NCBI GenBank assembly: GCA_963666275.2
Contig: CAXXOA010000001.1
Location: 864,001-928,000 of the forward strand
Length of the DNA: 64,000 nucleotides
Direction: 5' to 3'
Source: Oceanispirochaeta sp.
Lineage (GTDB): Bacteria; Spirochaetota; Spirochaetia; DSM-2461
Below the pieces are notes generated by a model. The model did not search any database. It was not told the DNA's origin and worked only from the letters and a program-made list of their open reading frames with translations. Shown here piece after piece: positions 17,665 through 36,686 of the stretch (the first letter of the stretch is position 1; every line of letters begins with the position of its first letter). The translations under genes and the position numbers were made by a program.

Positions 17665-18114
17665 ATGGGAGAACCTCAAGTGGACCAGAACCAATTAGAT
17701 CAAATTGGAGATTTTGTAAAAAGTCATCTTGGACAGTGGATACAGGAACAGAATATTTCTCTTTTTCCAGTAAGAGATAAGTCCCTTGATAAGGAACTTC
17801 TGGAAAGAATGATCCGGGTGGAAGAAGGTTTGAAAAATCAGATGGAACTGACCCGTCAGGGATTTGAAAATATGGAGAAACGTTTTATTGAACGTTTTGA
17901 AGCTGTTGATAAAAGGTTCGAGGCCGTGGATAAACGCTTCGAGGCCGTGGATAAGCACTTTGAGGCCGTGGATAAGCACTTTGAGGCCGTGGATAAAAGG
18001 TTTGAAGATATGCAGCACTATATGGACAAGCGTTTTAATGTTCAAACATGGATTATCAGTGCAGGTTTCGCCATGATGACAATACTGATGTCTCTCTATC
18101 GGTTCTTTGGTTAA
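17665..18114 (+). CDS. Coiled-coil heptad-repeat protein with C-terminal TM helix
   Basis: GGAG RBS; (K)RFEAVD repeats; hydrophobic C-terminus. An alternative start exists at 17641. Confidence 0.75.
   Translation: MGEPQVDQNQLDQIGDFVKSHLGQWIQEQNISLFPVRDKSLDKELLERMIRVEEGLKNQMELTRQGFENMEKRFIERFEAVDKRFEAVDKRFEAVDKHFEAVDKHFEAVDKRFEDMQHYMDKRFNVQTWIISAGFAMMTILMSLYRFFG
17893..18006 (+). repeat. 21-bp in-frame tandem repeat, 5 copies plus a partial copy
   Basis: Unit like cactttgaggccgtggataag, encoding (R/H)FEAVDK. Confidence 0.9.
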
Positions 18115-18201
18115 GATAAGAAACAAACTGCCCATATATGAATAAGAACCAAGCCGGTTTACTGGAATGGTATCTCTTCTCATTTTTACAAGGTTCAGAT
18201 T

Positions 18202-19082
18202 ATGAAACAGAAAATTTCTGCCTCCCTTAACGAGGCATTCGGCTTCGACTCCTTCCGGAAGGGCCAGGAGGATGTGATAACAAAAATATTAAGCGGAGAC
18301 TCGGCGGCGGCTATTTTTCCCACCGGGGCGGGGAAGTCCCTCTGTTATCAGCTGCCGGCTCTGCTGCTGCCGGGAATGACTCTTGTTGTCTCTCCTCTCC
18401 TGTCCCTGATGAAGGACCAGCTGGATTTTCTGAGTTCCAGGAACATACCCGCCGCCAGGCTGGATTCGTCTCTGAGCAGTGAAGAGTACAGTTCCGTCAT
18501 AGCCAGGGCCTCCCGGGGGGATCTCAGAATCCTGATGATATCGGTGGAGCGTTTCCGTAATGAGAGGTTCAGGAATTATCTGAAAAATATGAGGATTTCG
18601 CTCCTCGCTGTTGATGAAGCTCACTGTATTTCCGAATGGGGGCACAACTTCCGCCCCGAGTATCTGCGTCTTCCCGAATACAGAGCGGAGTTCGCTATAG
18701 AGCAGGTACTCCTGCTGACTGCAACGGCAACACGGTCTGTGGCAGATGATATGTGCCGGAAATTCAGGGTAAAACCGGAAAACCTTGTGTCCACAGGTTT
18801 CTACAGGGCCAATCTTCATCTGGCAGTGATTCCCCTGGAAAGGTCGGAAAAAAGAGATAGACTTCTTCAGGATCTTTCAGAACAACCTGATGCGCCTTCG
18901 ATTGTCTATGTGACCCTTCAGAAAACAGCGGAAAATCTGGCCTTCTGGCTGAAAGAACAGGGTGTGGATGCTTCTTCCTATCACAGCGGTATGAAAAATG
19001 ATGAGAGGACGGCCATACAGAACCGTTTTATGCAGGGAGAACTGAACTGCGTTGTTGCCACCATCGCCTTCGGGATGGGGAT
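18202..19082 (+). pseudogene. recQ: RecQ-family helicase, 5' half, interrupted by the island
   Basis: PTGAGKSLCYQLP, VDEAHCISEWGHNFRPEY, LTATA and VVATIAFGMGI; the native continuation is at 35567. Confidence 0.9.
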
Positions 19083-19428
19083 AAACAAGCCCAATGTTAC
19101 GCATTGTAGTGCACTACGATCTGCCCAAAAATGTGGAAAATTATTACCAACAGATTGGCCGGGCCGGATGTAACGGACTGGATTTCCACTGCCTGCGGCT
19201 CTTCAATAACGGCGATAACTGCGGCAGCTGATCTCCTATCAGGAAGAATACGGGCTGCTGGATAAAGAAGCTCTGGAACGGGCCATGAATCTGGATGAGG
19301 AATTACGGAATAGGATCGCAAGACTCATCGAAATCCTGGGAGAAGGCCGTTTGAAGCAGATTCAGCAGGAACTGGGCGACCAGGTGAATATGAATCAGCT
19401 GAAGATGATGGTTCTTTGGAACACATAA
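19083..19428 (+). pseudogene. Degenerate 3' remnant of a second, different recQ
   Basis: After a frameshift it reads [23 protein letters not shown], then in another frame a C-terminal HTH-like tail LIEILGEGRLKQIQQELGDQVNMNQLKMMVLWNT*. Confidence 0.75.
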
Positions 19429-19530
19429 TTCCTCAGAATAGGTAGGGATTAACGACAGGCTTAAGACAACACTCGACATCATTCTGTAAATATAGTAAAA
19501 TAAAAGACCGATTTTTTATGGAGGCTGATA

Positions 19531-20268
19531 ATCAGCAAAGAGCAAAGAACCTTCCAATCAGGGGATCCCCGAAAAAACCGTTTACTATCCGTTTTGCCGG
19601 AAGCTGATTATAACCGGATTGCCCCTCACCTGGAATTGATAACCTTCTCTTTGGGAGACGTTCTCTACGAATCGGGCAGCCAATTCAATTATGTCTATTT
19701 TCCCACCACTGCCATTATCTCGCTGCTATCGTTGATGGAGAACGGTTCTTCTGCCGAAATATCCATTGTCGGGTTTGAAGGAATTGTCGGCATTGCCCTT
19801 TTTATGGGCGGAGAAACCATGGCTAATCGAGCTGTTGTGCAGAGCGCCGGGATGGCCTTCCGACTGAATGGTCGACTCCTGAAGCAGGAATTCAACCGCG
19901 CCGGACCCTTTCAGCATCTGCTGCTTCGCTATACCATGGCCTTTATCGCCCAGATGGCACAGACTGCCGTTTGTAATCGCCACCACTCGATAGACCAGCA
20001 ACTCTGCCGCTGGCTGCTGCTCAGTCTTGATCGTCTACCTTCGAACGAACTGAGCATGACCCAGGAACTCATAGCAAACATGCTTGGAGTGCGCCGTGAA
20101 GGTGTCACTGAAGCCGCAGGGAAACTACAGAACGCCGGTCTGATTGATTACCATAGGGGACGTATTACCGTATTGGACAGACCTGGGCTTGAAGCCCGGG
20201 TTTGTGAATGCTATGAAGTGGTTAGGAATGAGTTTGCCCGTTTACTTCCTGACTCTATTGCGGAATAA
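19531..20268 (+). CDS. Crp/Fnr-family transcriptional regulator (start uncertain: ATC/ATA near 19528-31, or TTG at 19594)
   Basis: cNMP-binding-like domain and HTH MTQELIANMLGVRREGVTEAAGKL. The family-typical N-terminus DPRKNRLLSVLP lies upstream of the TTG. Confidence 0.9.
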   Translation: MSKEQRTFQSGDPRKNRLLSVLPEADYNRIAPHLELITFSLGDVLYESGSQFNYVYFPTTAIISLLSLMENGSSAEISIVGFEGIVGIALFMGGETMANRAVVQSAGMAFRLNGRLLKQEFNRAGPFQHLLLRYTMAFIAQMAQTAVCNRHHSIDQQLCRWLLLSLDRLPSNELSMTQELIANMLGVRREGVTEAAGKLQNAGLIDYHRGRITVLDRPGLEARVCECYEVVRNEFARLLPDSIAE

Positions 20269-20449
20269 TCCTTCTCATCAAATTTTCCTTTAGTATATCG
20301 AAGGCTGCAGGCATGGTGAGACCGAAATCCGCCAAGCGGACATGAACCCGTCCGTCCACCGCCCAGACTCGTTCAAGTTCTTGCAAGGGAGTCAAAGCAA
20401 TTCCCCGTCACATTAACATCATTCAAATATATTCCTGCAAAGTTCATCG

Positions 20450-20495
20450 GTCTGTTCGCTTTCGAACAGACTGGAGCCAAAAAAAAGAATACCTT
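20450..20495 (+). promoter_or_regulatory. Palindromic operator 1 plus -10 box (class II Crp-like promoter)
   Basis: GTCTGTTCG-CTTT-CGAACAGAC (20450-71), then 18 bp, then TACCTT. Confidence 0.75.
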
Positions 20496-20528
20496 TAGAA
20501 GTATCAGTTAACAAAAAAGGAGATTGAT

Positions 20529-20795
20529 ATGGAAATCAATGAAGTAAGTAAAACGGCAAAAAGTAGTTTCGGGTCCTTCTTATCGAACAAACCCCTCTGG
20601 GCATTCTGGATCGCCTATACCCTTCTGTGCGCAATGCTATTCGGTATTTTTTATGGAGTTATCTATCTTATGGCACAGTTATGGTGGGTTCCTGTAATAG
20701 CCATCATTGTCATCGGGATGATTTGGGGAACTCTGGCATATACCCCGGAAAAAATTTTACCTGAAAAGAACGAAACGATGACGAATAATGTTTAA
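20529..20795 (+). CDS. Small two-TM membrane protein
   Basis: AGGAG RBS; 88 aa with two hydrophobic helices. Confidence 0.7.
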   Translation: MEINEVSKTAKSSFGSFLSNKPLWAFWIAYTLLCAMLFGIFYGVIYLMAQLWWVPVIAIIVIGMIWGTLAYTPEKILPEKNETMTNNV

Positions 20796-20849
20796 GAAGT
20801 CTTTTTGCAGCGAGTCCTTCGAAATATTCCAGGAGCAAAGGATTGATTT

Positions 20850-23399
20850 ATGAATGGAAAACACAATTTTGATGAAGTTCGCAAAATTGCTTATCCCACA
20901 ATTTCCCATGAACTGCTGGAGATAATATGTACAGGTAAAGAAGCAACGAATGAACAGAAAAAAGAAATTGCGGCTATTTCCCATGACTTGGGCAAAAATT
21001 ACTATCCCGAAATTCTGTTTCTGTTAACCTTCAATGAAATAGATAATCCGCAATTGGCCGAAAAGATCTGCCGTAAAATAGCCGTGCATAAAAAGAGCCT
21101 GGAAGAAAAAATCGGAAGACCTATTCTCCTGGAACTTGCGGCTAGAGACTATATTCAATGTAACCACCATGCAGACTCTTCCCTTATGAGAAATCAGGGG
21201 AAAATAATTACCCAAATAGCCAGACAGGCCATAAGAGACAATAATACCAACTGTTTTACTGCAGTACAGCTCCAAATCGATTTACAAAAAGAAATTGATC
21301 GATCTTATCGATATGGATCAACTTTTTCCATTATTATGATCGATTTAGACAATTTTAAAAGAATAAATGATTCCTTTGGCCACCAAAAGGGAGATCAGGT
21401 ATTACAATTTTTTGCTTCTCTCATAGAGGAGCATCTTCGGAAACCGGACAATCTCTATCGTTTCGGGGGAGACGAATTCCTCATTCTTCTTCCACAAACA
21501 AATATCAAAGGGACAGGTCAAATAGCCGATAAGCTGATTAAGCTTTTAAATACCACCACATGCGAAACCATTGATCAGACCATATCGATCAGTATGGGAA
21601 TCTCATCTTTTGAAAATAATCATGGTCACAGCCGCGAAGAAATAATAAAGAATGCAGACCAGGCTCTTTTCAAGGCAAAAAGTGAGGGGAAAAACCAAAT
21701 TGCTCTCTGGATAAATGGAAAATGTGAAATATTGGATTCTGGAAAAGATGCCTCACCCCAAAAACCGGCAGAAAGGAATATTAAAATCTCCTGCCATAAG
21801 ATTATACCTGGATGTGCTATCGGCCGTATATTTATTTTTGATGACAATTTCACCAGCCGAGTCAGGCAATACGATATAAAAGAGAACGAAAAAAAAGAGG
21901 AGCTGGAAAGAATAAAGAGGGCCATTAGCAGTGTTGCCGATGATCTATCAAAAATGGAGAGTAATGTAAATGAAGAATTAAATAAGGATCATGGGGCCAT
22001 TTTTCTTGTCCATAAAATGATTCTTCAGGATATTTCCATCATAAATGACATAGAAACGGAATTAGGCGACAGGTTACTGAATGGAGAGATAATCGTTAGA
22101 GATATTTTTCGGAGACTGGAAAAAAGGTTTCTCCTTTTTGAAGATGAGCAACGCCGGGAAAAGGCAAAAGATATAAGGGATATTGCCGGTAGACTAGTTA
22201 GAAAGCTTCAAGGGAAGGACCATAATATCCTTTCATCACTTCCGAAAAACACCATTCTCGTATCTCAAAGACTTCTCCCTTCTGATACGGTATTTATTGA
22301 TAAAAAACATGTAAAGGCGATCATCACTGGTGAAGGCAGCCGTGGTTCACATTCTGCTATACTGGCCCGTGCATTGGGCATTCCCTATGTAACCATCGAT
22401 AGGAAGATTGATATACTGCCCAATAAATCTCATGTGATTGTAGACAGTGATGGCAGAACCATATTCATTAACCCCGATGCGATTCTTTCAGATAAGTACA
22501 AAGAGCGGATAAAAGAGGAATCTAAAGAAAATCAGGAGCAGGATATTTCCTGGGAACCCATCGAATTCGGTGGAAGAAAGATATCGATATTAGCCAATGT
22601 TTCCTCTGAAGAGGAAGCCCTTGATGCCCTGTCATCCCATGCGGAGGGTGTGGGTCTATTACGGGTGGAAACCATATATTTATCCAGTCAGATTATGCCT
22701 GATGAGGATTTTCTTCTGTCCCGTTTCATGGAGATTCTAACTCCTCTCAAAGGAAAAGAGATAACCATCAGACTGCTGGATATAGGATCGGATAAAGTTC
22801 CTTCCTATCTGGATCTGGGGAATGAAATTAATCCGGCTCTGGGGCTCAGGGGAATCCGGCTTCTCCTGAAACATAAAAAACTTCTCAAGACTCAGCTATC
22901 CGCCTGCATCAGACTGAACAGAGAGATCCCTGTGAAAATTTTGCTACCCATGGTTTCACTCCCCTCGGAAGTACGGACCGTACGTCACTTAATGAAGGAA
23001 ATCGAGGGAGGGGGAAATATTCAAATAGGGGCGATGATAGAAACGCCAGCATCTTTGTTTCAATTGGATGAGATTATTGAAGTATCAGACTTTATCAGCG
23101 TGGGAACAAATGATCTGTTTCAGTACACCATGACTGCAGACAGGGAAAACAATGAAGTGGCAGAGTATTTTGACAAGGGCTTCCAGATCCTGGAAAATAC
23201 GATAGAGGAAATATTCAGGAAGTCCAGAGAAGCGGGTAAAGACTGTACCGTCTGCGGAGAAATAGCGGGAGACAGCGACCATATTTATGCCATGCTGAAA
23301 AAGGGTCTTACCCAGTTCAGTGTATTACCCAACCTTATTAAGAGGGTCAGGCGGGAAATCTTCGATTACGCTGAGAAAAGCAAGGAGACTACTTTGTAG
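20850..23399 (+). CDS. GGDEF domain-PTS Enzyme I (PtsI/PtsP-like) fusion
   Basis: RKPD..RFGGDEF followed by EI motifs GSHSAILARALGIP, NPALGLRGIR, MIETP, GTNDLFQY and VCGE. Confidence 0.9.
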   Translation: MNGKHNFDEVRKIAYPTISHELLEIICTGKEATNEQKKEIAAISHDLGKNYYPEILFLLTFNEIDNPQLAEKICRKIAVHKKSLEEKIGRPILLELAARDYIQCNHHADSSLMRNQGKIITQIARQAIRDNNTNCFTAVQLQIDLQKEIDRSYRYGSTFSIIMIDLDNFKRINDSFGHQKGDQVLQFFASLIEEHLRKPDNLYRFGGDEFLILLPQTNIKGTGQIADKLIKLLNTTTCETIDQTISISMGISSFENNHGHSREEIIKNADQALFKAKSEGKNQIALWINGKCEILDSGKDASPQKPAERNIKISCHKIIPGCAIGRIFIFDDNFTSRVRQYDIKENEKKEELERIKRAISSVADDLSKMESNVNEELNKDHGAIFLVHKMILQDISIINDIETELGDRLLNGEIIVRDIFRRLEKRFLLFEDEQRREKAKDIRDIAGRLVRKLQGKDHNILSSLPKNTILVSQRLLPSDTVFIDKKHVKAIITGEGSRGSHSAILARALGIPYVTIDRKIDILPNKSHVIVDSDGRTIFINPDAILSDKYKERIKEESKENQEQDISWEPIEFGGRKISILANVSSEEEALDALSSHAEGVGLLRVETIYLSSQIMPDEDFLLSRFMEILTPLKGKEITIRLLDIGSDKVPSYLDLGNEINPALGLRGIRLLLKHKKLLKTQLSACIRLNREIPVKILLPMVSLPSEVRTVRHLMKEIEGGGNIQIGAMIETPASLFQLDEIIEVSDFISVGTNDLFQYTMTADRENNEVAEYFDKGFQILENTIEEIFRKSREAGKDCTVCGEIAGDSDHIYAMLKKGLTQFSVLPNLIKRVRREIFDYAEKSKETTL

Positions 23400-24241
23400 T
23401 TTTATTCAACTCATTCCATAAATGGCTGCAATAGTAAATGGACATATGATCCTCAACGTCTCTATACGTACCAGTTTATTCAGACCAACAAAATAATGCT
23501 TCCATTCTGTAACGGAACGCCCGACATATCTTTTAAATATACTCATTTTAGACCAAAAGCCGGTATGGTTTTTCCGTCTTCTCATTTTGTTTAAAGTAGA
23601 AAAGGTTCTATTAATTTGCTTCAGGATAGTTTTCCCCATTATTTTCCTTTGACCGGCGAAATCAGGTTCTTCTTTATCCATAACGATGTGTCCCTCTTCT
23701 GATATATACACCAATGTTCCTAAATGGCTGAAATTAAAATCGATTTTAGGTAAATCAGGTGGAACAAGAGGAACTGGGTCATCATGATTCACAATTCTCC
23801 AACTTGTTTTAGCGGCTGAAAGAGCAATGAGTTCCTGGTCACCAAAGCGGGGAGCCCCAAAGGTATACAGACCAAAACTGGAGTCATGTTTGGTAAAGGC
23901 TAAACCAGCAAGGGCTCCGCCAAGACTATGCCCTGTAAACCATAAAAATCTCTTGGGGTTCTCTTCTATAAGCTGGTCCAGAAAGATCTTTACTCCCGTT
24001 GGATTTTCCCAAACACTATCTAAAGCCTTTGCAAATCCTTGGTGAACCTTACCGCCCTGTTCAAGATGACAATAGGCCAGGAAAGAACATTCAGAAAACC
24101 ACCATGCATTAACTGGTGAATAGTTTGTTTTTTGATTTGAAGAGGAAATTTTTCTCCATTTTCGAAATAAACATAATTCATATCAGGAGGTAATTCCGGA
24201 TTTTCAGGAACATCTTTATAACGGATTTTTGGCAATGTCAT
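23389..24241 (-). pseudogene. Class 3 lipase pseudogene
   Basis: KVHQGF, GHSLGG, YTFGAPR, VNHDDPVPLVP and DHMSIYY are spread over shifted frames (shifts near 24135 and 23465). Confidence 0.8.
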
Positions 24242-24395
24242 TTTAGTCAAACTTTTCTCCTGTAGAGTTTTACATCCCTTGGGCAAGAACATCTCAACTT
24301 CAGAATGCCCTGTTTGCTTTATCGCATTTCTCCTATAACTCTGACCAAAACTATTTGGATTGTTCCTATGGTCCCACCTTGTTTTTCATAAAGAC

Positions 24396-25142
24396 CTACC
24401 TGGATTTACCCTGATTTGCCACAGCCGCTTCTGCTTTGGCAATTTCTTCGGAGTTTCCGATGTAGTAATGCCTGATTGGTTTGAGATTGTTGTCCAGTTC
24501 GTATACCAGCGGAACACCGGTCGGAATGTTGAGCTCGACGACTTCCTCTTCAGAAAGCTTGTCCAGGTATTTGACCAGGGCCCGCAAACTGTTGCCATGA
24601 GCGACAATGACAACTCGTTTGCCCGACTTGACCACCGGGGCGATTTTTTGGTCCCAATAGGGCCACACACGGCCGAGGGTTAGTTTGAGCGATTCGGTCG
24701 CCGGTAGTTCGACGGGCGTCAGCCTATCATAACGGCGGTCAAATCGGGGATGTCTTTCATCATTCTCTCCCAGTCCAGGAGGTGTAATGCTAAAGCTGCG
24801 GCGCCAGATTAGGACCTGTTCATCGCCAAACCTGGCGGCTGTATCGGCTTTATTCAGCCCCTGGAGGGAACCGTAGTGGCGTTCATTTAATTCCCAGGCC
24901 CGGATCACGGGAATCCATTCCAGGTTGAGCTCAGACATCACCGACCATAAGGTTTTAATAGCGCGCTTCAGTACGGAAGTAAAGGCTGTGTCAAAAGTGT
25001 ATCCTCCACAGCGCAATACGTCTCCCGCCTTTTGGGCTTCCACGAGGCCCTGAGCGCTTAAGTCCACATCTGTCCAGCCGGTAAAGCGGTTTTCCAGGTT
25101 CCAGGTGCTTTGTCCATGACGAATCAATACGAGTTTATGCAT
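24396..25142 (-). CDS. gpmA: 2,3-bisphosphoglycerate-dependent phosphoglycerate mutase
   Basis: [37 protein letters not shown] and LNIPTGVP; 248 aa. Confidence 0.95.
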
Positions 25143-25155
25143 TTTAAGTTCTCTA

Positions 25156-25515
25156 CTAGTCTTCACGGGTCTGAAGCCCAAAGATTCGACAACCTTTTTT
25201 CATTCGTCCATACATGTTTCTTTTCTTCATCCGCGATGAGAAAAAAAAATGTATTTGTTCAGAATTTTCTAACGCCTTTGATTTCCCTGTATAAAAGCTG
25301 ATGCTCATTTTCTCAATATCCAGGTATTTTCTGTAAAGATCATCCTGAGAGATATCGATATTGAATATATTCTTATCCTTTTTCAAGTCAACAAAACACG
25401 TGATATCTGTTTTTTTTAATATAGTTTCAGGAACAGTTTCTACAAAACAATTAACCAGCCCTGCTTCTCCTGCCAATACACTGGATAGCTCTTTATTCCC
25501 TTGTACATTAGTCAC
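25156..25515 (-). CDS. Hypothetical protein (possibly a gene remnant)
   Basis: GTG start after AGGAGG; no family recognised. Confidence 0.45.
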
Positions 25516-25578
25516 GGTTACCTCCTAAATCATTTAATAATTAATCAATCCTATACAATCCGCTATCTGGATTAACTC

Positions 25579-25649
25579 AGTATATGGTCTTTCCACTGGA
25601 TAAGTCTGTGCGTTATCGAACAGACAGGAACAGCCATGAGGATTATCTT
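25579..25649. promoter_or_regulatory. Palindromic operator 2 between divergent operons
   Basis: GTCTGTGCG-TTAT-CGAACAGAC (25604-25). TATCTT lies 18 bp away on +; TATACT lies 19 bp away on -. Confidence 0.75.
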
Positions 25650-25689
25650 GAATACAGAAACAGTTATTGAATAAGAAACGGGAGCGGTT

Positions 25690-28479
25690 ATGTATATTTT
25701 GTTATTTTTAATAATATTTATTTTTGAAGGCTTGCTGATCATCGGCGGTTTCAGGAAAAAAAGAAAAATCTTAAAAATTTTAGGCACTGTACTTCTTACC
25801 ATCACTTGTATATTTTTGTGGTTCATGGGGTTTTGGGCCGATAAATTATGGTTTCAATCACTGGGGTTTATTGACAGATTCTGGACTGAATTTACAGTAA
25901 AACTAGGCTTTGGAATAGTTTCGTTCCTTATGGGCGGCATATTTATGTCCCTATTACTCATTCGTGTAAAAAAGCTCGGGACAGAAATAAAGACCTTTAT
26001 CACGGTCGGTACAGCGCTTATATCAGGATCAATTGGTACAGGTTTATGGGATGAGGCTCTTCTGTTCTTTAACAGAGTTCCTACAGGAACTATTGATCCG
26101 GTATTTGGCCTTGATGTTTCATTCTATATTTTTAGTCTTCCGTTTATTGCAGGCGTACATAAACTGTTAATGAACCTTTCTTTCATTTCCACAATAGTTG
26201 GATTATCGATCCTCGTTATAAGAACCAGAATTACTCTGACAAGTGGAATTATTCAACAAGAGCCTATTGATGATACAGAAAAGGAAACTTCCGGTCCTTT
26301 TTTAGTCGGATCAGCACTCTTGATTCTGTTTTCTGCTTTAGGATTGATAATTCGGCGTTTTCAGCTGTTATACAGCTCTGGAGGTACCGTAAACGGTCCC
26401 GGTTGGACTGAAGTTAATATTAGATTTCCGGCCATGATGGTCGCAGCACTAATAGTTGTTCTTGGGATGTTTTTTATTATCATACCAGGTTTAAGAAAAG
26501 TTAGTGCTTCTCCCTTGAAAAAGTTTAAAAAGTTAAATGAATCATTAAAATCTGTGGGTGTCGTTTTAATGCTGACCACTGTCCTTTGTATTCTGATTAT
26601 CGGAATTATTCCGGGAGTCATTCAGGCCCTGATTGTAGCACCCAACGAGATAACTTATGAACAGCCGTATATTGAAAGAAATATAGAATTCACAAGACGT
26701 GCCTTTAAGCTGAGCCATGTTCAGGAGAAAGAATATCCAATGGACTCAGTAGAATTCGACCGCAGCATTATTGAAGCGAATTCCGCGATAATCAACAATA
26801 CAAGGTTATGGGACTGGCATGCATTGAGTTCAGTGTATCAACAATTTCAGGAAATAAGACTGTATTATAAGTTCGGCGATATTGATATGGATCGCTATGA
26901 GATAAATGGTGAAAAAAGAGCCGTAATGGTTTCCGCCAGAGAAATGGAGTTGTCCAATTTAACGGCCCAGAGTCAGAACTTTGTCAATGAACGCTTTAAA
27001 TACACACATGGTTACGGTATAGCTATGAATACCGTAAATGAATTTACTGCCTCCGGGCTACCCCACCTTCTTATAAAGGACATTCCACCGGTAAGTGAAA
27101 CTTCAGGTCTCGAGGTTACCAGGCCAGAGATTTATTATGGAGAAAGAACGAATTCCTATGTTATTGCCAACAGCAGCGAAAAGGAGTTTGATTTTCCCCA
27201 GGGCGACAAGAATAGCTATGTTAACTACGCAGGCAAAGGCGGAGTCGAGATCAGTAACTTCTTTAGAAAATTCATTTACGGCTTTAAATATAGCAGCACA
27301 AAACTTCTCTTCTCAAATTATCCTCAAAATGACAGCAGGATACTTATGAACAGAAATATAATGAAACGTGTTCAACTTGCCGCTCCATTTCTTAAATTCG
27401 ACAGCGATCCCTATATTGTTTTAATCAATGGTGAGCTCCTATGGTTTATAGATGCCTATACCACCTCAACCAATTATCCTTACAGTGAGCACTTTTCAGG
27501 AACCCTTGACGGTGGAACTATAAGCACACAGGGCCTTTCAAGAGGCATCAACTATGTGAGGAATTCCGTTAAGGCTGTAGTGAATCCATACGATGGGAAA
27601 ATGGATTTCTACATCTATGATGAAGAAGATCCTGTAATAGACGTATGGAACAAAATATACCCAGGTTTGTTTAAACCCAAAGCAAGCATGCCCGATGAAC
27701 TAAAAGAGCATGTAAGATACCCTGCAGATTTCTTACTGATACAGGGTGAAATTTATGCAAAATATCACATGACTGTTCCGGAGGTCTTCTATAACCAGGA
27801 AGATATCTGGGTCCGTGCGACTGAAAAATATTACAGTGAAGTACAGCCTGTAGAGCCCTATTATATTATGTGGGAACGTCAGGGTGAAGATAAGCCTGAA
27901 TTTATTATTATGCTTCCCTACACACCTAAAAACAAGCAGGTTTTGATAGGTTGGATTGCCGGTATGAGCGATCCCGAGCACTACGGCGAGTTAATCGTCT
28001 ATAAGTTTCCAAAAGATAAGAGAGTTTTAGGCCCTCAGCAGGTTGAAACGAAAATAGATCAGGACAGTTTTCTGTCGGGACAGCTATCCCTTTGGGATCA
28101 GAGGGGGTCGAATGTGATCAGAGGGAATATCCTTGCTCTACCGCTTGGAGGAACATTGCTTTATGTTGAGCCCATTTATCTACAGTCGGAGACTGCGGCT
28201 TATCCTGAATTGAGGCTGGTAGTACTCATGCACAATGACAAAATATCCTATGCCGAAACACTTGAGAAAGCCCTCACCGGTCTATATAAAGATTCTGTAC
28301 CTATGGTTCAATATGTAAATACCGGAAATGATAATACCGGAGGCGAGACACAAACCCTGTTAAAGCAGGCCGATGAAGCATTCAGAAACTACCTGGAGGC
28401 AACCGGTGAAGGGAATTTGAGAAAAGCAGGTGAAGAGCTCCAACGATTAAAAGATCTTTTTGAGAATATGCCGGAATAA
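25690..28479 (+). CDS. UPF0182 family membrane protein
   Basis: DKLWFQSLGF, DPVFGLDVSFYIF, RLWD, FQEIRLYYKF, YTHGYG and NYVRNSVKAVV motifs; 929 aa. Confidence 0.93.
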   Translation: MYILLFLIIFIFEGLLIIGGFRKKRKILKILGTVLLTITCIFLWFMGFWADKLWFQSLGFIDRFWTEFTVKLGFGIVSFLMGGIFMSLLLIRVKKLGTEIKTFITVGTALISGSIGTGLWDEALLFFNRVPTGTIDPVFGLDVSFYIFSLPFIAGVHKLLMNLSFISTIVGLSILVIRTRITLTSGIIQQEPIDDTEKETSGPFLVGSALLILFSALGLIIRRFQLLYSSGGTVNGPGWTEVNIRFPAMMVAALIVVLGMFFIIIPGLRKVSASPLKKFKKLNESLKSVGVVLMLTTVLCILIIGIIPGVIQALIVAPNEITYEQPYIERNIEFTRRAFKLSHVQEKEYPMDSVEFDRSIIEANSAIINNTRLWDWHALSSVYQQFQEIRLYYKFGDIDMDRYEINGEKRAVMVSAREMELSNLTAQSQNFVNERFKYTHGYGIAMNTVNEFTASGLPHLLIKDIPPVSETSGLEVTRPEIYYGERTNSYVIANSSEKEFDFPQGDKNSYVNYAGKGGVEISNFFRKFIYGFKYSSTKLLFSNYPQNDSRILMNRNIMKRVQLAAPFLKFDSDPYIVLINGELLWFIDAYTTSTNYPYSEHFSGTLDGGTISTQGLSRGINYVRNSVKAVVNPYDGKMDFYIYDEEDPVIDVWNKIYPGLFKPKASMPDELKEHVRYPADFLLIQGEIYAKYHMTVPEVFYNQEDIWVRATEKYYSEVQPVEPYYIMWERQGEDKPEFIIMLPYTPKNKQVLIGWIAGMSDPEHYGELIVYKFPKDKRVLGPQQVETKIDQDSFLSGQLSLWDQRGSNVIRGNILALPLGGTLLYVEPIYLQSETAAYPELRLVVLMHNDKISYAETLEKALTGLYKDSVPMVQYVNTGNDNTGGETQTLLKQADEAFRNYLEATGEGNLRKAGEELQRLKDLFENMPE

Positions 28480-28488
28480 AAGGGGAGA

Positions 28489-30441
28489 ATGATCATGTAT
28501 AGGAAAAAGAGCAATAAAGATTCCCTGGAATACGCAGAGAATATTCTCAATACTATTCGTGAACCCCTCATTGTTCTGGATCAGAATTTGAGGGTGATTT
28601 CAGCAAACAGTTCTTTTTTTAAAGTTTTCAGGGAAGAGCCTGATGAAACCCTGGGGCAGCTGATTTATAACCTGGGCAATCATCAATGGGATATTCCTCA
28701 ACTGCGGGAGTTACTGGAGAGGATTCTTCCTTTAGAGCAATCCTTTGATAATTATAAGGTTGAACATCATTTCAATACACTCGGCCGTCGTATTATGTCA
28801 TTAAATGCACGGAAGATTGAACGTAAAAAGGGAAAAGAGGAAATCATTCTTCTGGCGATTGAGGATATCACAGAGAAGGAAATGGCCCAACTCGCCCTTG
28901 AAGACTCAGAAGAACGATTTAGGCGATTATTTGAAACGGCGAAAGATGGTCTTTTTCTTTTAGATAAGAAAAACGGTCAAATCGTTAATGCGAATCCGGC
29001 GATTTGCAAGTTGTTGGGTTATACACAAAAAAAAATCATCGGTAAGTCACTTCACGACTTTCATTTTTCTATGGTCCTTGATGATTTTTACATCCTGTTG
29101 GAACATTTAATTATTCATGGCTTTATTTCCTATAATGACATTTTTGTACAAAATAAGCTAGGGACGCCAGTTAGCATCGATCTTCAAATCATTGACAGGT
29201 CGAGGTTTATTCAATGTAATTTCCGCGATATCACTGCTCGCAAGATTGCCGATAAAGAAAAGGCAATCCTTACAGATCAACTCAATCAGGCGCAGCGCAT
29301 GAAAACCGTTGGGGTTTTGGCGGGTGGGATTGCCCATGATTTTAACAATATTCTGTCCATTATTATTGGCAATGCAGAACTAGCCCTCAATGATATTTCT
29401 CCTGAAAACCCGGTCAAAGAAAATATGGAAACAGTACTGGCCGCTTCCATACGGGCAAAAGACCTGGTCAGCCAGATACTCACCTTCAGTCGGAAGGATA
29501 AAGCAATGCTTATTCCACTGTGGCCCCAGCCTCTCATTAATGAAACCTTAAAGCTCTTACGTTCGGCAACACCTGCCACCATTTCCATCATTCAGAATAT
29601 ATCAAAGGATTGCGGAATGATTATGACAGATATAACCCAATTCCATCAGATAATAATGAACCTTTTTGGGAATGCCGTCCAATCTATGAATGAGAAAGGT
29701 GAAGTGATAGTCAGTTTACAAGAAGTGAATTTGAATAATAAGGATTTTAGTCATTTTTCAAAAATGTCGCCCCTAACAATAAAAGCCCCGGGAGCTTTTG
29801 CCCGATTCTCCGTGGCTGATTCTGGAAATGGAATCGGACCGCACATAATGAAACATATCTTTGAACCTTTTTTCACCACCAAGAAGGTGGGAGAAGGAAC
29901 AGGCATGGGTTTGTCAGTGGTTCATGGCATTATTCAAAGCCAGGAAGGATTCATTACCGTTGAAAGCGAAGAAGATAAAGGAAGTACCTTCAGTGTGTTC
30001 CTCCCGATTACACACAACGAAGAAACGCATCATGTTGAAGTAAAAAAAACTATTCTTACCGGTACGGAACGAATACTTCTTGTAGATGATGAAGAACTTC
30101 TTCTGAATATGACGGAACAATTACTGGAACAAATGGGATATACAGTGACTAGTGAAGAAAGGAGTATAAAGGCTCTTAAAATTTTCAAGACAAACCCGGA
30201 AAACTTTGATCTTGTAATCACTGACCAGTCCATGCCAGAGATGTCCGGGGGAGAACTAGCATCCCAAATATTGAAAGTGAGACCGGAGATGCCCATTATT
30301 CTGTGTAGCGGATACAGCTCAAAAGTATCTGAAGAAAACTATAGAGACACTGGAATCGCTATGTATCTGAATAAACCCTATAACAGAAAAGCATTATCCG
30401 GAACGGTCAGGAAAGTATTGGACGGAAAAGGTTCAAAATAA
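28489..30441 (+). CDS. Cytoplasmic PAS-PAS hybrid histidine kinase
   Basis: Two PAS domains, GGIAHDFNN, HATPase and a C-terminal REC domain (LVDDE, TDQSMP). Confidence 0.92.
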   Translation: MIMYRKKSNKDSLEYAENILNTIREPLIVLDQNLRVISANSSFFKVFREEPDETLGQLIYNLGNHQWDIPQLRELLERILPLEQSFDNYKVEHHFNTLGRRIMSLNARKIERKKGKEEIILLAIEDITEKEMAQLALEDSEERFRRLFETAKDGLFLLDKKNGQIVNANPAICKLLGYTQKKIIGKSLHDFHFSMVLDDFYILLEHLIIHGFISYNDIFVQNKLGTPVSIDLQIIDRSRFIQCNFRDITARKIADKEKAILTDQLNQAQRMKTVGVLAGGIAHDFNNILSIIIGNAELALNDISPENPVKENMETVLAASIRAKDLVSQILTFSRKDKAMLIPLWPQPLINETLKLLRSATPATISIIQNISKDCGMIMTDITQFHQIIMNLFGNAVQSMNEKGEVIVSLQEVNLNNKDFSHFSKMSPLTIKAPGAFARFSVADSGNGIGPHIMKHIFEPFFTTKKVGEGTGMGLSVVHGIIQSQEGFITVESEEDKGSTFSVFLPITHNEETHHVEVKKTILTGTERILLVDDEELLLNMTEQLLEQMGYTVTSEERSIKALKIFKTNPENFDLVITDQSMPEMSGGELASQILKVRPEMPIILCSGYSSKVSEENYRDTGIAMYLNKPYNRKALSGTVRKVLDGKGSK

Positions 30442-30573
30442 TATTTCTTTCCTTCCAATCTGCCCTCCATTGGTATGAGGCTTAGAGCCCATTCTTCGCT
30501 CTCTATACTTCATTAACTGTATAAAGCCTTGATATCCGGTGAATATTTCCAAAGGTTTGCGATGGTCATCTTC

Positions 30574-32088
30574 CTAAGGGACGGACGCTGATATCATCGC
30601 GTTCAAACATTCATGTACATTTACAGTGGCAAAACTGGTTGAATAATCGCTCATTGCATAGGGGATAATCAATTCTCCATTATGTATGATGCTGCCGCAG
30701 GAATAGATAACATTGGGAACATATCCCTCCCTTTCTGTTTCGTTGGGTGACAACAAGGGGCTCGTCAAGCGGCCAATCACCTTGGATGGGTCCTTAAGAT
30801 CCAGTAAAAAGGCACCCAGGCAGTATTTCCGCATAGCTCCCACACCATGACTCAATACCAGCCAACCCGCTTCAGTCTCTATGGGGGATCCACAGGTTCC
30901 GATTTTAAACAGCTCCCAGTCCATAAAGGGCTTTAGCAGTATTTTGGGCGTTTGCCAGAAATGGATATTATCTGAAAACATCAGTGATATATTCTCATCA
31001 TCCTGACGGGACAGCATGGCGAATTGATGGTTTATTTTTTTGGGGAACAGGGCCATTCCTTTATTTTGAACGGCTGGACCGTTCAGTGTTATGAATTTAA
31101 ATTGGAGAAAATCCTTGGTCTCCAGTAATTGAGGAATGGTTAATTTTCCATCATAGGCCGTATAGGTTGCATAATAGGTACAGCTGAGGTCTTCATCTTG
31201 AAACCGGACAAAACGGGCATCTTCGATCCCATTGTGTTCTGTAGGACCTCTGGGAAAGAGAATCCTCTGCGAAAAGGGGCTTTCGGAGTCAAAACATACT
31301 TCATAATTGGATTTGGCCAGTAACAGAATACCATGGAGACTTCTATCGGCTATGGTATCCATGGGGTTCATTTTCTTTCTTTCTGTTTTAAGCAGAATAC
31401 AAAGTTCATCCATGGTGAAATATTCGGGAAGAGAATCCATCACTTTTCGGCAGAAATGATTGTGCAGTCCCGCTTCCCCTAGTTTTCTGAAGAAGAGATC
31501 TTTTTTATACTTGAAATGAGGTAAATACTCGGGTTCGCAAATATAAGGGCCATGAGGTATGAGTGTTATTTCTTTTTTTGCGTTTATCCGGCCTTCCCGA
31601 AAGGTGATTGAAGATATATGCCCCTCTCCTATGGCTCTTAAGCTGAGAATGAAGCGGATTGAATCCTCAGGTAAATCGGTCTGATCCGGATGAATGACCA
31701 GGGATGGATTCAGTAAGGCTGCTGACTCCGGTGAATATTCATGGCAAAAATAAGCTCCTATAAGAGTTTTACGCTTATCAGAGATGTGAAGATCATCATG
31801 TATATAGTCCATTATTTCTTTATAGCGATTATCGAATGACTTCTTTATATCCAGATGTCTGTCTTTGAATTCCTTAATCACCTCGGTCAGTTTTGTGGAA
31901 ACCTCTGACTCCGAAAGAGACTGAATCCTAGAGATAATATGACGTGTAATGGATTTATTTCCAGCGGAAAAGGCTCTGATCAGCACATGTGATCTTTCCG
32001 GGATAAGTGTGGGGCCAATCCTTCTGGCATTCACTACAGGTCTATTCTCCACATCATTTAGATTCCTTGGTAAGGCCGTTTTTTTCAT
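30574..32088 (-). CDS. GH130-like glycosidase/phosphorylase
   Basis: LSLRAIGEGHISSI, NGIEDARFV, NKGMALFP and EREGYVPNVIYSCG. Confidence 0.85.
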   Translation of the reverse strand: MKKTALPRNLNDVENRPVVNARRIGPTLIPERSHVLIRAFSAGNKSITRHIISRIQSLSESEVSTKLTEVIKEFKDRHLDIKKSFDNRYKEIMDYIHDDLHISDKRKTLIGAYFCHEYSPESAALLNPSLVIHPDQTDLPEDSIRFILSLRAIGEGHISSITFREGRINAKKEITLIPHGPYICEPEYLPHFKYKKDLFFRKLGEAGLHNHFCRKVMDSLPEYFTMDELCILLKTERKKMNPMDTIADRSLHGILLLAKSNYEVCFDSESPFSQRILFPRGPTEHNGIEDARFVRFQDEDLSCTYYATYTAYDGKLTIPQLLETKDFLQFKFITLNGPAVQNKGMALFPKKINHQFAMLSRQDDENISLMFSDNIHFWQTPKILLKPFMDWELFKIGTCGSPIETEAGWLVLSHGVGAMRKYCLGAFLLDLKDPSKVIGRLTSPLLSPNETEREGYVPNVIYSCGSIIHNGELIIPYAMSDYSTSFATVNVHECLNAMISASVP

Positions 32089-32101
32089 ATTCCTGACTTC
32101 C

Positions 32102-34378
32102 CTAAGATTTCAGTTTAAAACTGATAAGTTTGCTTTTTAAAAGATACATTTCTTCCTGAGAGAGGAGAAACGCCAAGGTCGATTCAGCCCCCTGATTCTG
32201 GCTAAGTCTGTCTATGTGAAGCCCGTCTCTGCAGCCTCCGCTTTCAGGATCGTACATGGGCTGTTCCAGATCGTTCCTTCCTAAAAACCATTCAAAAACC
32301 ATCCGGGCTTCTTCTGCCCAATAAATTTCTCCGGTTGTATTGAAAGCCTCAATACATGCTGAAATCGTAGCCTGGGCTTCAATAGGTTGCTGGTCGAAAA
32401 GAGCTTTGTCCTTGCCCTTTGGATAGAATCCGTTTGATCCGATTGCATGAAAAACCCCATTATCGGATTTCTGTATGGACAGAAGCCAGGAAAGTGTTTC
32501 TATTCCTTTATCTACGGCCTCCTTATTATTCATCTCTCTTCCGCTGCTGATCAGTGCGTGAGATAATTTTGCATTGACATAAGTGACCCCGTCCTCAAAC
32601 CAGGGCCAGTCAGGGGATGCGGCATCATTCAGCCTCTGCATCAGCTTCTCCACCAGTTCAACCCTTATCAATTCCGCTCTGCGGTCTCCGCTGAATTGGT
32701 GCAGATATTCATTTATACCAATAAGGGTAAAGGCCCAGGCCCGGGGTGATGTAAAACTGGTAACCACGGGTAAAGCGATTTCAAATAGACTGGCCGCCAG
32801 GAGCTGAAAGCGCTTATGCCTTCTGTGGCCCATGGACATTCCCAATGCCCAAAGAGCCTGGCCGTGGCAGTCTTCTGAGCCTGGCTGGTCTATCCAATTT
32901 CTATTGAAGTTCATGAAATTGCGGAATCGTTTGTTCGCGTGATCAAAGGCATGATTCAGAAAGGCTGCATAGACCACTGCCAGCTGATTGCTTTTATAAG
33001 TGCAGCGGCCTGTCCGTTGCAGAAGCAGTGTATATAGAAAGGCCCTGGCGTTGTCATCGGTACAATAGCCATGTTCAAAATTGGGAACTGTAAAGGATGC
33101 ATGCTGAAATATCCCTGTGGAATCACTTAAATTATAAAGATGATCAAGATTTAAAAGAGGCAATAAAGTAGGAAACTTATCCAGAGAAATTATGACCGAA
33201 GGTTGCCTGTTTTTTGAAGGATAGATGGAACAGGCTTCATCAAAGGTTTTCATATATTGCCTGGCAACAGAACTCCACGTCATGGTCCGTCCCAGTATAA
33301 AGGCGTCTTTTCTCATTTTATGCCGTTGGGATGAATGGGATAATAATTCAATGGCTGCATCCGAAATGGCCTTATAATCACAAAATGGCACCAGTAGTCC
33401 TCTGCCCTCGGCCAATAATTCACTGGCATGCCAGTAGGGCGTGGAAATAACAGCATTACCTGTACCAAAGGCGTATGCCAGGGTTCCTGAGGTGATTTGC
33501 GCTTCTGTCAGATAGGGTGTTAGGTATATATCGCTGGAACCGATAAAGCGTAGCAATTCATCCAATTCCACAAAGCGATTGATAAAAACAACGTTTTTTT
33601 GAATCTCAAGGTTTTTTGCCAACAATTCCAAACTGAGTCGGTAAAGCTCTCCGTCCTTCTTTAATAAATGGGGATGTGTCTGCCCTACTACAATGAATAC
33701 CGTATTGGGAAATTTCTCAAGAATCTGTGGCATGGCCTGCAGGCCGTATTCGATCCCCTTGTTGGGAGAGAGCAGGCCAAAGGTAAGAATAACCTGTTTC
33801 CCCGCCACGCCGAACTCATCCTTGAAATAATTGGGATCGGCAAAGGGAATATCGGGAATTCCGTGGGGGATCAGACTAATCATATCCTCCGATGCACCAT
33901 AGACGTTTTTCAGTATTTCCTTTCCCTTTAAGGTCATAACAATGAGCCGGGAGGATAATTGAATGATTTCAAGCATGACTTTCATCTGGTCGGGATTGGG
34001 AGATTCAAGCAGAGTATGGAGAGTGGTGGCTATAGGCATCTTCAATATATGCATAAGAGCCAGAATATGGCTTCCCGCATCACCGCCATAAATACCGAAT
34101 TCATGCTCTATGCAGACCATATCGACATTGGCCATATTCAGGAAATCAGCTGCCCTGAGATAGGAATTCAAATCCTGTTCCATGATTTCAAACCTTACTT
34201 CTTCAGGATAATCATAACCATCAGGAATATCGTTCACAGGAACGACAAGACATTTTTTTTCTGGGAACTCCTGTGATAGGGATGTACATAAATCCTTTGT
34301 GAAAGTTGCTATTCCGCACTTTCTCGGTAGATAATTGCCGATAACGGCGATTTTTTTAATCTCGGTATTTTGCTGCAA
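32102..34378 (-). CDS. GT4 glycosyltransferase with C-terminal six-hairpin-like domain
   Basis: PRKCGIATFT, HEFGIYGG and SGTLAYA; C-terminal GYCTDDNARA and NQGAESTLA. Confidence 0.88.
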   Translation of the reverse strand: MQQNTEIKKIAVIGNYLPRKCGIATFTKDLCTSLSQEFPEKKCLVVPVNDIPDGYDYPEEVRFEIMEQDLNSYLRAADFLNMANVDMVCIEHEFGIYGGDAGSHILALMHILKMPIATTLHTLLESPNPDQMKVMLEIIQLSSRLIVMTLKGKEILKNVYGASEDMISLIPHGIPDIPFADPNYFKDEFGVAGKQVILTFGLLSPNKGIEYGLQAMPQILEKFPNTVFIVVGQTHPHLLKKDGELYRLSLELLAKNLEIQKNVVFINRFVELDELLRFIGSSDIYLTPYLTEAQITSGTLAYAFGTGNAVISTPYWHASELLAEGRGLLVPFCDYKAISDAAIELLSHSSQRHKMRKDAFILGRTMTWSSVARQYMKTFDEACSIYPSKNRQPSVIISLDKFPTLLPLLNLDHLYNLSDSTGIFQHASFTVPNFEHGYCTDDNARAFLYTLLLQRTGRCTYKSNQLAVVYAAFLNHAFDHANKRFRNFMNFNRNWIDQPGSEDCHGQALWALGMSMGHRRHKRFQLLAASLFEIALPVVTSFTSPRAWAFTLIGINEYLHQFSGDRRAELIRVELVEKLMQRLNDAASPDWPWFEDGVTYVNAKLSHALISSGREMNNKEAVDKGIETLSWLLSIQKSDNGVFHAIGSNGFYPKGKDKALFDQQPIEAQATISACIEAFNTTGEIYWAEEARMVFEWFLGRNDLEQPMYDPESGGCRDGLHIDRLSQNQGAESTLAFLLSQEEMYLLKSKLISFKLKS

Positions 34379-34548
34379 TGTTCACTCGATATGTGTCTGA
34401 GTTTCAGCAGAAACTCGCATAATATAAAGCAGGGCATATGAAAGGTTTAAGCATGTAGTTAATACTTACCTCTAAAATCAAGCGCAAGATAAGGATTATC
34501 TTTCTGTTTGAAGGATAATCATTTCTTGTCTTCTTAATGTAAATATAC

Positions 34549-34650
34549 TCATTTAATCCTTAATGAACAAATCTTTCCTCCTATCCCAATGACCTCAATA
34601 ACGTTTCCACATATTTCACATCTGTAAATCTGTTTTTTTTCAGTAGTCAT
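34549..34650 (-). pseudogene. Truncated desulfoferrodoxin/desulforedoxin-like N-terminal fragment
   Basis: GGAGG RBS; MTTEKKQIYRCEICGNVIEVIGIGGKICSLRIK* has the first CxxC but lacks the CC pair. Confidence 0.6.
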
Positions 34651-34701
34651 TTTAATCCTCCAGGATTTTTATCATTGATTCCAGCCTGATCGGGAGCGAA
34701 A

Positions 34702-35454
34702 TCAGGTTGTTACTTTCTCGACCCAGTAACCCACGCGATTGTAATGACCATGCAGTTTCCCCTCATAATCCCGTGAAAGCATCTTTTTCCCGGTGTATTC
34801 AGGCGACTCTTTAACGGTCTCACGGTTAAGATTAACAATAACCTTCATTTCATCCCAACTGACCCGTTCTATCCATTTTGGAGAAATCAGCACTTTCCTA
34901 CCGGGCAACCAATTTCGTGTATCCACTACCAGATAACGGATTTTCCAGGTCTCATCATGTAGAATGTAGTCTTCCACATGACCTATTTCTCCGTCCTTAG
35001 CCTGAATGTGATATCCCTGTACCGCGTAGTAACTGCGTAAATGTGGGTTCCAGGATTTTCCCGCCCTATTTTTTGACCCTATTTCTGGGTGAGGAACCAT
35101 GAAAGACTCATTACCCCAGGTGTATGATCCGTACCAATATACAGGCCATCCGTAGTACTCGTAGTAGGATTCTTCGAATTGCTGTGAGACCGGCTTATCG
35201 TTCTCCAACGAGGGACTGCCCTCAATTTGTTTCTTCGTCAAATCGACGGCTACCTGACGCTTGTCCTCATTCATGGACAGCAATGCATAGGGTGAGATTA
35301 ATACACGTCTTTCCTTCAGCCAGTTTCCGGTATCTACCACCAAATAACGGACGGCCCAGTGCCGGTCATCAAAATAGAACTCCTTAACCTTTCCTATTTC
35401 TCCATCTCGGCTTTGTAATGTGTAACCTGTCAAATCTTTTACAGTTGTCAACAT
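34702..35454 (-). CDS. Tandem PRC-barrel domain protein
   Basis: Two repeats of DGEIG.V..F..DD..W..RYLVVDT.NWL..R.VLISP; ATG at 35454 after GGAGG. Confidence 0.9.
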   Translation of the reverse strand: MLTTVKDLTGYTLQSRDGEIGKVKEFYFDDRHWAVRYLVVDTGNWLKERRVLISPYALLSMNEDKRQVAVDLTKKQIEGSPSLENDKPVSQQFEESYYEYYGWPVYWYGSYTWGNESFMVPHPEIGSKNRAGKSWNPHLRSYYAVQGYHIQAKDGEIGHVEDYILHDETWKIRYLVVDTRNWLPGRKVLISPKWIERVSWDEMKVIVNLNRETVKESPEYTGKKMLSRDYEGKLHGHYNRVGYWVEKVTT

Positions 35455-35482
35455 AAAGCGATACCTCCAATTAGTTAGTATT

Positions 35483-35528
35483 ACGATAATGAATATCAGA
35501 GGGTTCGTCTGTTCGATAGCGCACACTG
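35483..35528 (-). promoter_or_regulatory. Palindromic operator 3 plus -10 box
   Basis: On the minus strand: CAGTGTGCG-CTAT-CGAACAGAC (35528-35507), then 18 bp, then TATCGT. Confidence 0.75.
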
Positions 35529-35558
35529 AAGGATGTTTTACATAAGAAAATGTCCGGC

Positions 35559-36068
35559 ATGGGGATCGATAAAAAAAATATCCGCCGGGTCATACACTTT
35601 GATCTGCCGAAATCCATTGAAAACTACAGTCAGGAGATCGGCCGGGCCGGACGGGACGGGCAGAAGTCTCTCTGCCGGGTTTACAGTGATATAAGCAATC
35701 TTTCTGTGCTGGAAAATTTTGTCTATGGGGATACTCCCGACAGACAGGCCGTCCGGAGGATCCTTTCTAGGATCAGAGAGTGTGACAAACTATGGGAAGT
35801 CAAACTCTCCGAGTTAAGTCGGGATTCCAATATACGGACTCTGCCTCGGCTGGATGAAAAAGGAGTGGCCGGACTGCTTGAACAGTTCCTGCCCCTGTCC
35901 GGGCAGGAGAGAACCTCTGCCAATCTGGCTAAATTCCTCTGCGGCATCAATATGCCCTTTTTTACCTCTATCAGAGCAAAAACTCTGGGAGGTTTCGGGA
36001 GTCTTGAGAAATATCCCTTCGCACAGGTCCGGGATTTTCTGGAGGAGACTCCCTTCTGGAAGGAGTGA
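35559..36068 (+). pseudogene. recQ: RecQ-family helicase, displaced 3' half, probably with an internal deletion
   Basis: [34 protein letters not shown] (motifs V-VI). The sequence after SNIRTLP (~35846) seems short for the family. Confidence 0.85.
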
Positions 36069-36075
36069 TGGAGAG

Positions 36076-36594: not shown

Positions 36595-36686
36595 AGCTCT
36601 TACTCCCGTGATGTCTATTATTTACCACCCCTATTGTAACAGGTTCTGTTTTTACGATGCAATTGCCGGCTGTTTCCGGGGCTGTC

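Follow-up and report, generated by a model that had tools for sequence, protein, structure and literature searches.

How did a block of foreign genes come to lie inside a recQ-family helicase gene, and how did half of another recQ gene come with it? The block is 16.5 kb long and interrupts a recQ-family gene of Oceanispirochaeta sp. (genome G000) within the 64,000-nt stretch of DNA analysed here, which we call the window (Table 1). Ahead of the block, the host reading frame carries a DEAD domain and the first part of Helicase_C, is free of internal stops and shows 75.9% identity over 294 aa to L002, the intact ortholog (638 aa) of genome G004. Judged by domain content and alignment, positions 18202-19076 and 35561-36068 belong to a single recQ-family gene. 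In a quick tree, on which the placement of the 5' half rests, this half pairs as sister with the G004 ortholog and not with the foreign piece behind it (SH-aLRT 98); the piece from 35568 onwards is also sister to the G004 ortholog (94/89). Excluded from the trees were L047 (a duplicate of L024), duplicates, and proteins below 450 aa or above 800 aa. In G004 the upstream gene is the same as in the window and no island lies inside recQ; the nitroreductase and 823-aa genes downstream in the window do not adjoin the G004 ortholog. The 157-aa gene upstream of recQ contains six copies of a 21-nt-period repeat (17875-18026), and its G004 homologue measures 148 aa. G000 retains three further recQ-family genes.

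An assembly artefact is ruled out by public contigs of one sample, probably the source, which span both junctions and the frameshift described below with zero differing letters. Among them, X1 record 2 (17967-29347) and record 6 (29634-36600) contain no differing letter and one gap, at 24127. At that position the public contigs of three runs show one extra T, possibly an assembly slip, in a short ORF (24020-24292). A joint 18926 -> 35578 in the public contigs was considered as a trace of excision and not accepted (22-letter side, 80% likeness).

Directly behind the host 5' half lies a foreign recQ remnant in three pieces. The preliminary description had taken it for a replacement 3' end from a different RecQ lineage, distinct from the host 3' half, and residue comparison bears this out. 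Over the 44 residues after GMGI, the remnant is identical to P0061 at 36, to P0062 at 35 and to L024 at 32, against only 20 to 24 for ten orthologs of the host gene. For the piece from 35568 the pattern is reversed, with 26-35/44 to host orthologs and 21-22/44 to the P0061/P0062/L024 type. The tree places the remnant with P0061, P0062 and the G015 gene, all canonical RecQs with an HTH_40 tail (100/98); forcing it into the host clade gives p 0.19 in an AU test on 44 columns, which is no rejection. A search with the remnant tail retrieved P0061 and P0062, two 712-aa proteins with 53 and 49 of 63 residues identical, respectively; in representatives, the one match was a 47-aa piece with the same sequence as the query. 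The HTH-like tail noted earlier ends in a stop at 19426-19428 and is matched by PF14493 (HTH_40) at E 3.2e-5 and 24.6 bits, below the 27-bit cut-off. Full-length relatives of the remnant carry RecQ_Zn, RQC and HRDC domains; P0061 and L064 score 772.9 and 761.3 bits against a TIGR01389 cut-off of 640.2, compared to 416.9 for the host ortholog. As far as sequence can tell, the source of the remnant is a canonical RecQ with an HTH_40 tail. No locus was found for P0061 in viral contigs.

The replacement is in frame at the junction for GMGI-NKPNV and frameshifted beyond. The frame opened at 18202 continues to 19098, an extra base sits at 19097-19099 (the 1-nt shift already noticed near 19098), and the foreign recQ frame resumes at 19100. 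Past NKPNV, today's chimeric ORF (18202-19173, 323 aa) no longer follows the RecQ frame, and it has no QxxGRAG motif; in the first piece of the remnant an R-to-C change lies just past GRAG. Further on, the NGDNCGS scrap would imply two deletions by protein alignment, one removing about 52 codons and another, accompanied by a change of frame, removing about 250. With this +1 frameshift and these deletions the restored gene is not intact, in agreement with the decay of the predicted chimera proposed in the preliminary description. The host 3' half in turn has lost about 552 nt near 35847-35850 without a change of frame. Its ORF begins at 35556 with host-type sequence after the crossover from 35568, and a search for a promoter-like site upstream of this orphan half found none.

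Table 1. Features of the interrupted recQ gene and its island (positions in the window).
Feature	Position	Strand	Basis
Host recQ 5' half, non-canonical paralog, TIGR00614 subfamily	18202..19076	+	Pfam, NCBIfam, tree
Inferred left crossover, AT of the Met codon in G-M-G	19075..19076	+	Junctions of G252, G048, G008, G025
Remnant piece 1, end of Helicase_C (~P0061 residues 294-339)	19077..19216	+	Residue comparison, tree
Remnant piece 2, NGDNCGS, scrap of RecQ zinc-binding region (P0061 389-395)	19208..19230	+	
Remnant piece 3, HTH_40-type C-terminal tail of canonical RecQ (P0061 648-710)	19231..19428	+	
Crp/Fnr-type regulator	19594..20268	+	
88-aa membrane gene	20529-20795		
849-aa GGDEF + PEP-utilising (enzyme I-like) fusion	20850..23399	+	
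Phosphoglycerate-mutase-like	24396-25181	-	
UPF0182	25690-28479	+	
PAS hybrid kinase	28489-30441	+	
GH130	30574-32088	-	
Glycosyltransferase	32102-34378	-	
PRC-barrel	34702-35526	-	
Attachment-site arm, P arm of an attR	35534..35558	-	Motif comparison
Right crossover core, AT of the Met codon	35559..35560	+	
Host recQ 3' half, in frame with 5' half	35561..36068	+	78.4% over 97 aa and 54.7% over 75 aa to L002

The island has a GC content of 42.0% (genome 47.8%). Its Crp/Fnr gene and 88-aa membrane gene show 76-77% DNA identity to G015:C355. In a search of five genomes, G015 has counterparts of the Crp pair and of the glycosyltransferase pair at 71-77%, and no match to the cargo was found in G004 and G013. 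G015 also carries the recQ lineage of the remnant; cargo and remnant lineage both match G015, not G004. The 849-aa fusion gene is also cargo in the recQ-docked cassettes of G003 and G008 (68-69% DNA identity) and is mobile cargo of such cassettes in three genomes. Related palindromic sites at 20450-20475, 25604-25625 and 35507-35525, in intergenic or gene-start positions, are candidate binding sites for the Crp/Fnr-type regulator of the island, and one of them is also present in G015:C355.

None of the nine island ORFs scanned matched a recombinase family. Profile searches of G000 gave no PF07508 or PF00239 match (controls matched in 2 and 12 of 14), and none of its 10 matches to PF00589 (tyrosine recombinase) lies inside the window. 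Elsewhere in the genome, a 407-aa PF00589 tyrosine recombinase (G000:C1:1063487-1064707, L072) looks integron-integrase-like by eye. A second probable recQ-docked island, also outside the window, occupies G000:C1:626300-669800 (partly L061-L063). Here relic starts of a short recQ paralog with upstream DNA, 84-88% identical, occur at 664342-664695, 667030-667084 and 669486-669812, about 38 kb upstream of the intact gene.

Seen in the window alone, the switch from host to foreign sequence falls somewhere in the VATIAFGMGI codons (~19051-19083). Comparison with relatives places the crossover at the AT within the Met codon: in G252 the element-specific bases reach the AT, and host bases in G048 and G008 end after it. 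Both window junctions have this same core dinucleotide. The left repeat of the preliminary description is indeed shared sequence, but it measures only 8 bp (19075-19082 and 35559-35566) and is no target duplication, as it equals the M-G-I codons common to both genes. Between the two 3' halves 78 of 132 bases are shared and the longest run is 8, which makes entry by homologous recombination unlikely. The DNA before the right junction is non-recQ, as had been stated, yet it proves to hold a conserved attachment-site arm. The 12-base motif of this arm, TTATGTAAAACA (read outward, 35534-35545), lies 13 nt from the right core and occurs twice in the 5.27-Mb genome of G000. An attP-type arm is present at the right junction only; the left arm is absent from the window, and neither a P' arm nor a complete attachment site was found in the island. 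Elements that exploit Xer have their binding arm directly beside a 6-8 bp spacer. A Xer/dif-like site was rejected here, since the motif sits 11-14 nt from the crossover core.

According to protein searches and locus reading, 9 of 38 family genomes, many of the 38 being fragmented, have a recQ interrupted at the G-M-G codons (G000, G003, G008, G009, G012, G013, G018, G045 and G048; the G045 junction is decayed and its arm weak). The cut is also found in G025, G252 and the metagenome contig L115, and three recQ paralog types are affected. Beyond the cut stands the conserved motif, whose distance from the AT is 11-12 nt at junctions on the left and 13-14 nt at those on the right. Allowing up to one mismatch, it is present at 17 of 18 recQ junctions (13 perfect) and on neither side in any of 36 intact recQ genes, where it should be kept in mind that the motif was derived from those same junctions and that intact genes are constrained by coding. 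The core is AT in 15 of 17 recQ junctions, CT in G008 and TT in one G009 copy. By these observations, recQ is a hotspot at which integration recurs in one spirochaete family. They also bear on illegitimate recombination at the conserved motif, in which no site-specific enzyme would take part. Conservation of the motif among paralogs and the lack of a serine recombinase in G000 would suit such an event, but the conserved arm at a fixed offset largely refutes it; the repeated cutting of one codon in three paralog types and the mere 8 shared bases also argue against it, and we regard it as extremely improbable.

Scans with strict junction patterns yielded 21 matches in genome contigs with no clear junction, 2 and 6 matches in viral contigs with no recQ, 4 matches in metagenome contigs of which one is real (L115), and matches in 6 of 401 genomes of the phylum with no junction. 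The patterns are too strict, so the empty scans say little: the right-junction pattern found only G000 and missed the attR sites of G009, G013, G045 and G048. Among the genome-contig matches, L099 is ambiguous; its first 220 nt (L099:1-220), the start of an Eggerthellaceae MAG contig, possibly hold an arm and a recQ-like 3' part.

Which enzyme makes this cut? In G025 the 561-aa P0003, with PF00239 (Resolvase) and PF07508 (Recombinase) domains, starts 51 bp from the right junction (attR). In G252, which has a 26.9-kb insert, a homologue of P0003 begins 45 bp away from the right junction; in G048 one begins about 63 bp behind the left junction. A gene of this large serine recombinase class is thus present in all three elements and absent from the window's island. 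PF07508 occurs in only 3 of the 38 family genomes, and among the nine junction-bearing ones only G048 has the P0003 recombinase clade; the recombinases of G008 and G052 show no match or only a weak match to P0003. An alignment of the clade matched 16 of 401 class genomes. Three of the five best matches adjoin recQ and two (G663, G692) do not; overall, recQ stands beside 3 of 100 recombinase loci examined, all three from G025, G252 and G048. In viral contigs a single query found no P0003 relatives and the alignment only distant ones, and no GenBank phage protein covered 80% of P0003. Cut, core and arm are shared, and through them the P0003 clade can be linked provisionally to the island in the window. 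Because relatives are cut at the same codon, in some cases beside a serine recombinase gene, the island likely rode in on the enzyme of another element. Our preferred reading, drawn from sequence comparison, is that an integrase-less island probably entered recQ at the G-M-G AT by means of the large serine recombinase of a helper, which has since likely gone. Observations that count against it are the finding of this recombinase clade in G048 only among the nine, the position of G663 and G692 away from recQ, and the lack of a serine recombinase in G000 and of a P' arm or complete site in the island; because of the latter the helper is unseen. The earlier reading of a chimeric recQ is supported in substance, and an island without its own recombinase is a refinement of it.

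An autonomous element whose attP contained a recQ 3' half could instead have inserted itself into the host gene while this was intact, and have lost the integrase afterwards. This needs a single step and fits the layout, with a precedent in tyrosine-integrase islands that supply dusA with a new 5' end, according to the available text of PMC8409611. Nevertheless, no integrase family was matched among the island ORFs scanned, and the recombinase-bearing elements with both ends readable (G025, G252) split recQ with no replacement at either junction. In addition, phiC31 attB x attR gives little or no product in the accessible part of PMC2475636. We consider this route improbable.

Three cassette layouts recur in genomes that lack the P0003 recombinase clade. 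In layout (a) a left arm is followed by a whole recQ (G009, G012, L115). Layout (b) consists of a 5' half, arm, cargo and a second 5' half fused to the host 3' half (G003, G008, G018); its 5' copies are 98.5% identical over 926 bp in G003 and 99.7% over 890 bp in G008, a near-identity to the host copy that points to gene conversion at a later time or to circulation among close kin. In layout (c) a complete gene is followed by cargo, arm and a second 3' half, with 97.0% identity over 867 bp in G013 and 86% over 121 bp in G045. The window island has layout (c), but its 3' half comes from another paralog, whereas the halves in G013 and G045 are of their own lineage. G009 carries two attR in tandem (93.4% over 949 bp). 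In G008 a complete symmetric site lies 190 bp inside attL, between attL and cargo, which is the product expected from attL x attR; the stretch from attL to this site forms a 190-bp mini-element (L039:5745-5945).

Other features of G009 lie at or near these sites. Directly before a recQ attR (L163:2727-15813, on G009:C165) we observe a DncV-like cyclase with a SAVED-HNH effector, a type III restriction-like cluster (by eye) and an SNF2 helicase. Two intact copies of the host-type recQ paralog are found on separate contigs of the same genome (L032:9508-11562, L033:8644-10680).

Layout (a) raises the question whether a whole canonical recQ inside the left arm was inserted in the window as well. 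A later deletion between the two G-M-G motifs, through microhomology or a recombinase, would then have joined the carried 3' part onto the 5' half of the host, with loss of the left arm and the carried 5' half. The arm speaks for this course: letter for letter, TTATGTAAAACA in the window is also the arm that G009, G012 and L115, the very elements with whole genes, have at their left junctions, 11 nt from the core, and on this ground the course keeps some weight. Furthermore, G012 shows a nested insertion into the carried recQ, and the remnant itself has already undergone two deletions. The carried genes, however, encode about 607 aa with no HTH_40 tail, and agree with the remnant in no more than 25-26 of 44 residues. 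Among relatives of the remnant that are placed in a genome, the nearest (G015, L064) follows a divergent intergenic region of ordinary kind in which no arm was seen by eye, and the precise half-gene copies in G013, G009 and G045 indicate that the 3'-half layout arises repeatedly. On balance, we find this course unlikely.

Entry by means of a helper's recombinase, the reading we prefer, could have run as follows. Large serine recombinase elements insert at the AT and split recQ, as is seen in relatives. In a G015-related donor such an insertion would leave an attR (arm plus recQ 3' half), which might then have been circularised together with cargo. With a helper residing in the host paralog, the circle could dock at the helper's attR (attR x attR), giving the two-attR state that is seen in G009. 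Excision of the helper by attL x attR would next join the host 5' half to the 3' half of the cassette and leave the cassette in place, in a layout as in G013 and G045; any function of the resulting chimera would belong to this stage. Both 3' halves then decayed. Mirror reactions would yield layout (b) and the symmetric site of G008. The supposition of a recQ-restoring element that jumped into a paralog gains support from the relatives, which hold recQ-targeting insertions with half- or whole-gene replacements. It is possible, though we hold it with some doubt, that integrase-less half-gene cassettes of spirochaetes, with hybrid attL/attR ends, generally parasitise helper excision in this way, stay in recQ, restore the gene and can swap halves between paralogs. 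According to the available text of PMC2475636, wild-type phiC31 integrase alone acts on attP x attB only, and reactions of the attR x attR or attL x attL type are described only for mutant enzymes in assays; these data concern mutants of a family other than that of P0003.

Compared to large serine recombinase elements as described in the accessible parts of PMC10083194 and PMC2475636, likenesses are the Resolvase + Recombinase enzyme adjoining the junction in relatives, the inverted arms around a 2-bp core and the insertion in a conserved coding motif. Different from these elements, the island in the window has no recombinase and carries half of its target gene, and different from the elements of Durrant et al., as far as the available text of PMC10083194 goes, it is the G-M-G codons in several paralogs of recQ that are targeted. 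In that study (PMC10083194) neither the main text nor any of 8 supplements contains 'recQ', the supplements do not contain 'Spirochaet', and six F-G-M-G codon variants are absent on both strands from file 3. Helicase domains are found among its targets (Helicase_C 13 target against 3 background, FDR 0.076; DEAD 7 against 2), so a recQ target in the full database is possible. Elements at dusA such as IMEVchUSA3 (PMC8409611, available text) likewise disrupt a protein gene and provide a divergent replacement in frame at the junction. They carry a tyrosine integrase and replace about 35 N-terminal residues, whereas here about 400 C-terminal residues of another paralog are concerned, no integrase is carried and the product is now broken.

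The comM islands of Acinetobacter baumannii (PMC11472951) resemble the present case in that a recombination helicase gene is repeatedly targeted by unrelated cargo, including CBASS; the DncV-like and SAVED-HNH pair of the G009 recQ element is comparable. In the accessible part of that paper the islands are Tn7-like or IS-mediated, replacement is not described, and recQ is mentioned once, for an association with transformation. SEs, GInts and Tn554 (available text of PMC10214605 and PMC5385486) share imperfect terminal inverted repeats, a short variable spacer and target specificity, but need tyrosine recombinase operons, whereas the enzyme linked here is a serine recombinase with a 2-bp crossover. 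Their mechanism was rejected, since no tyrosine recombinase operon is found at the island end and a serine recombinase adjoins the junction in relatives. No recQ-targeting serine integrase was found in the literature searched, which was mostly without subscription journals. The recQ-targeting system of spirochaetes, for which no earlier description was found in that literature, is a variant of serine-integrase and target-restoring islands.

Spirochaetes have few genetic tools, and P0003 with its defined sites is a testable candidate for a site-specific integrase in this group. The locus in the window is a decayed relic, yet the divergence between its two 3' halves is too great for homologous entry, which makes it an informative case. 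It may be an example from nature of reactions of the attR x attR or attL x attL type, and it suggests how integrase-less islands flanked by half-gene copies of about 900 bp arise and persist.
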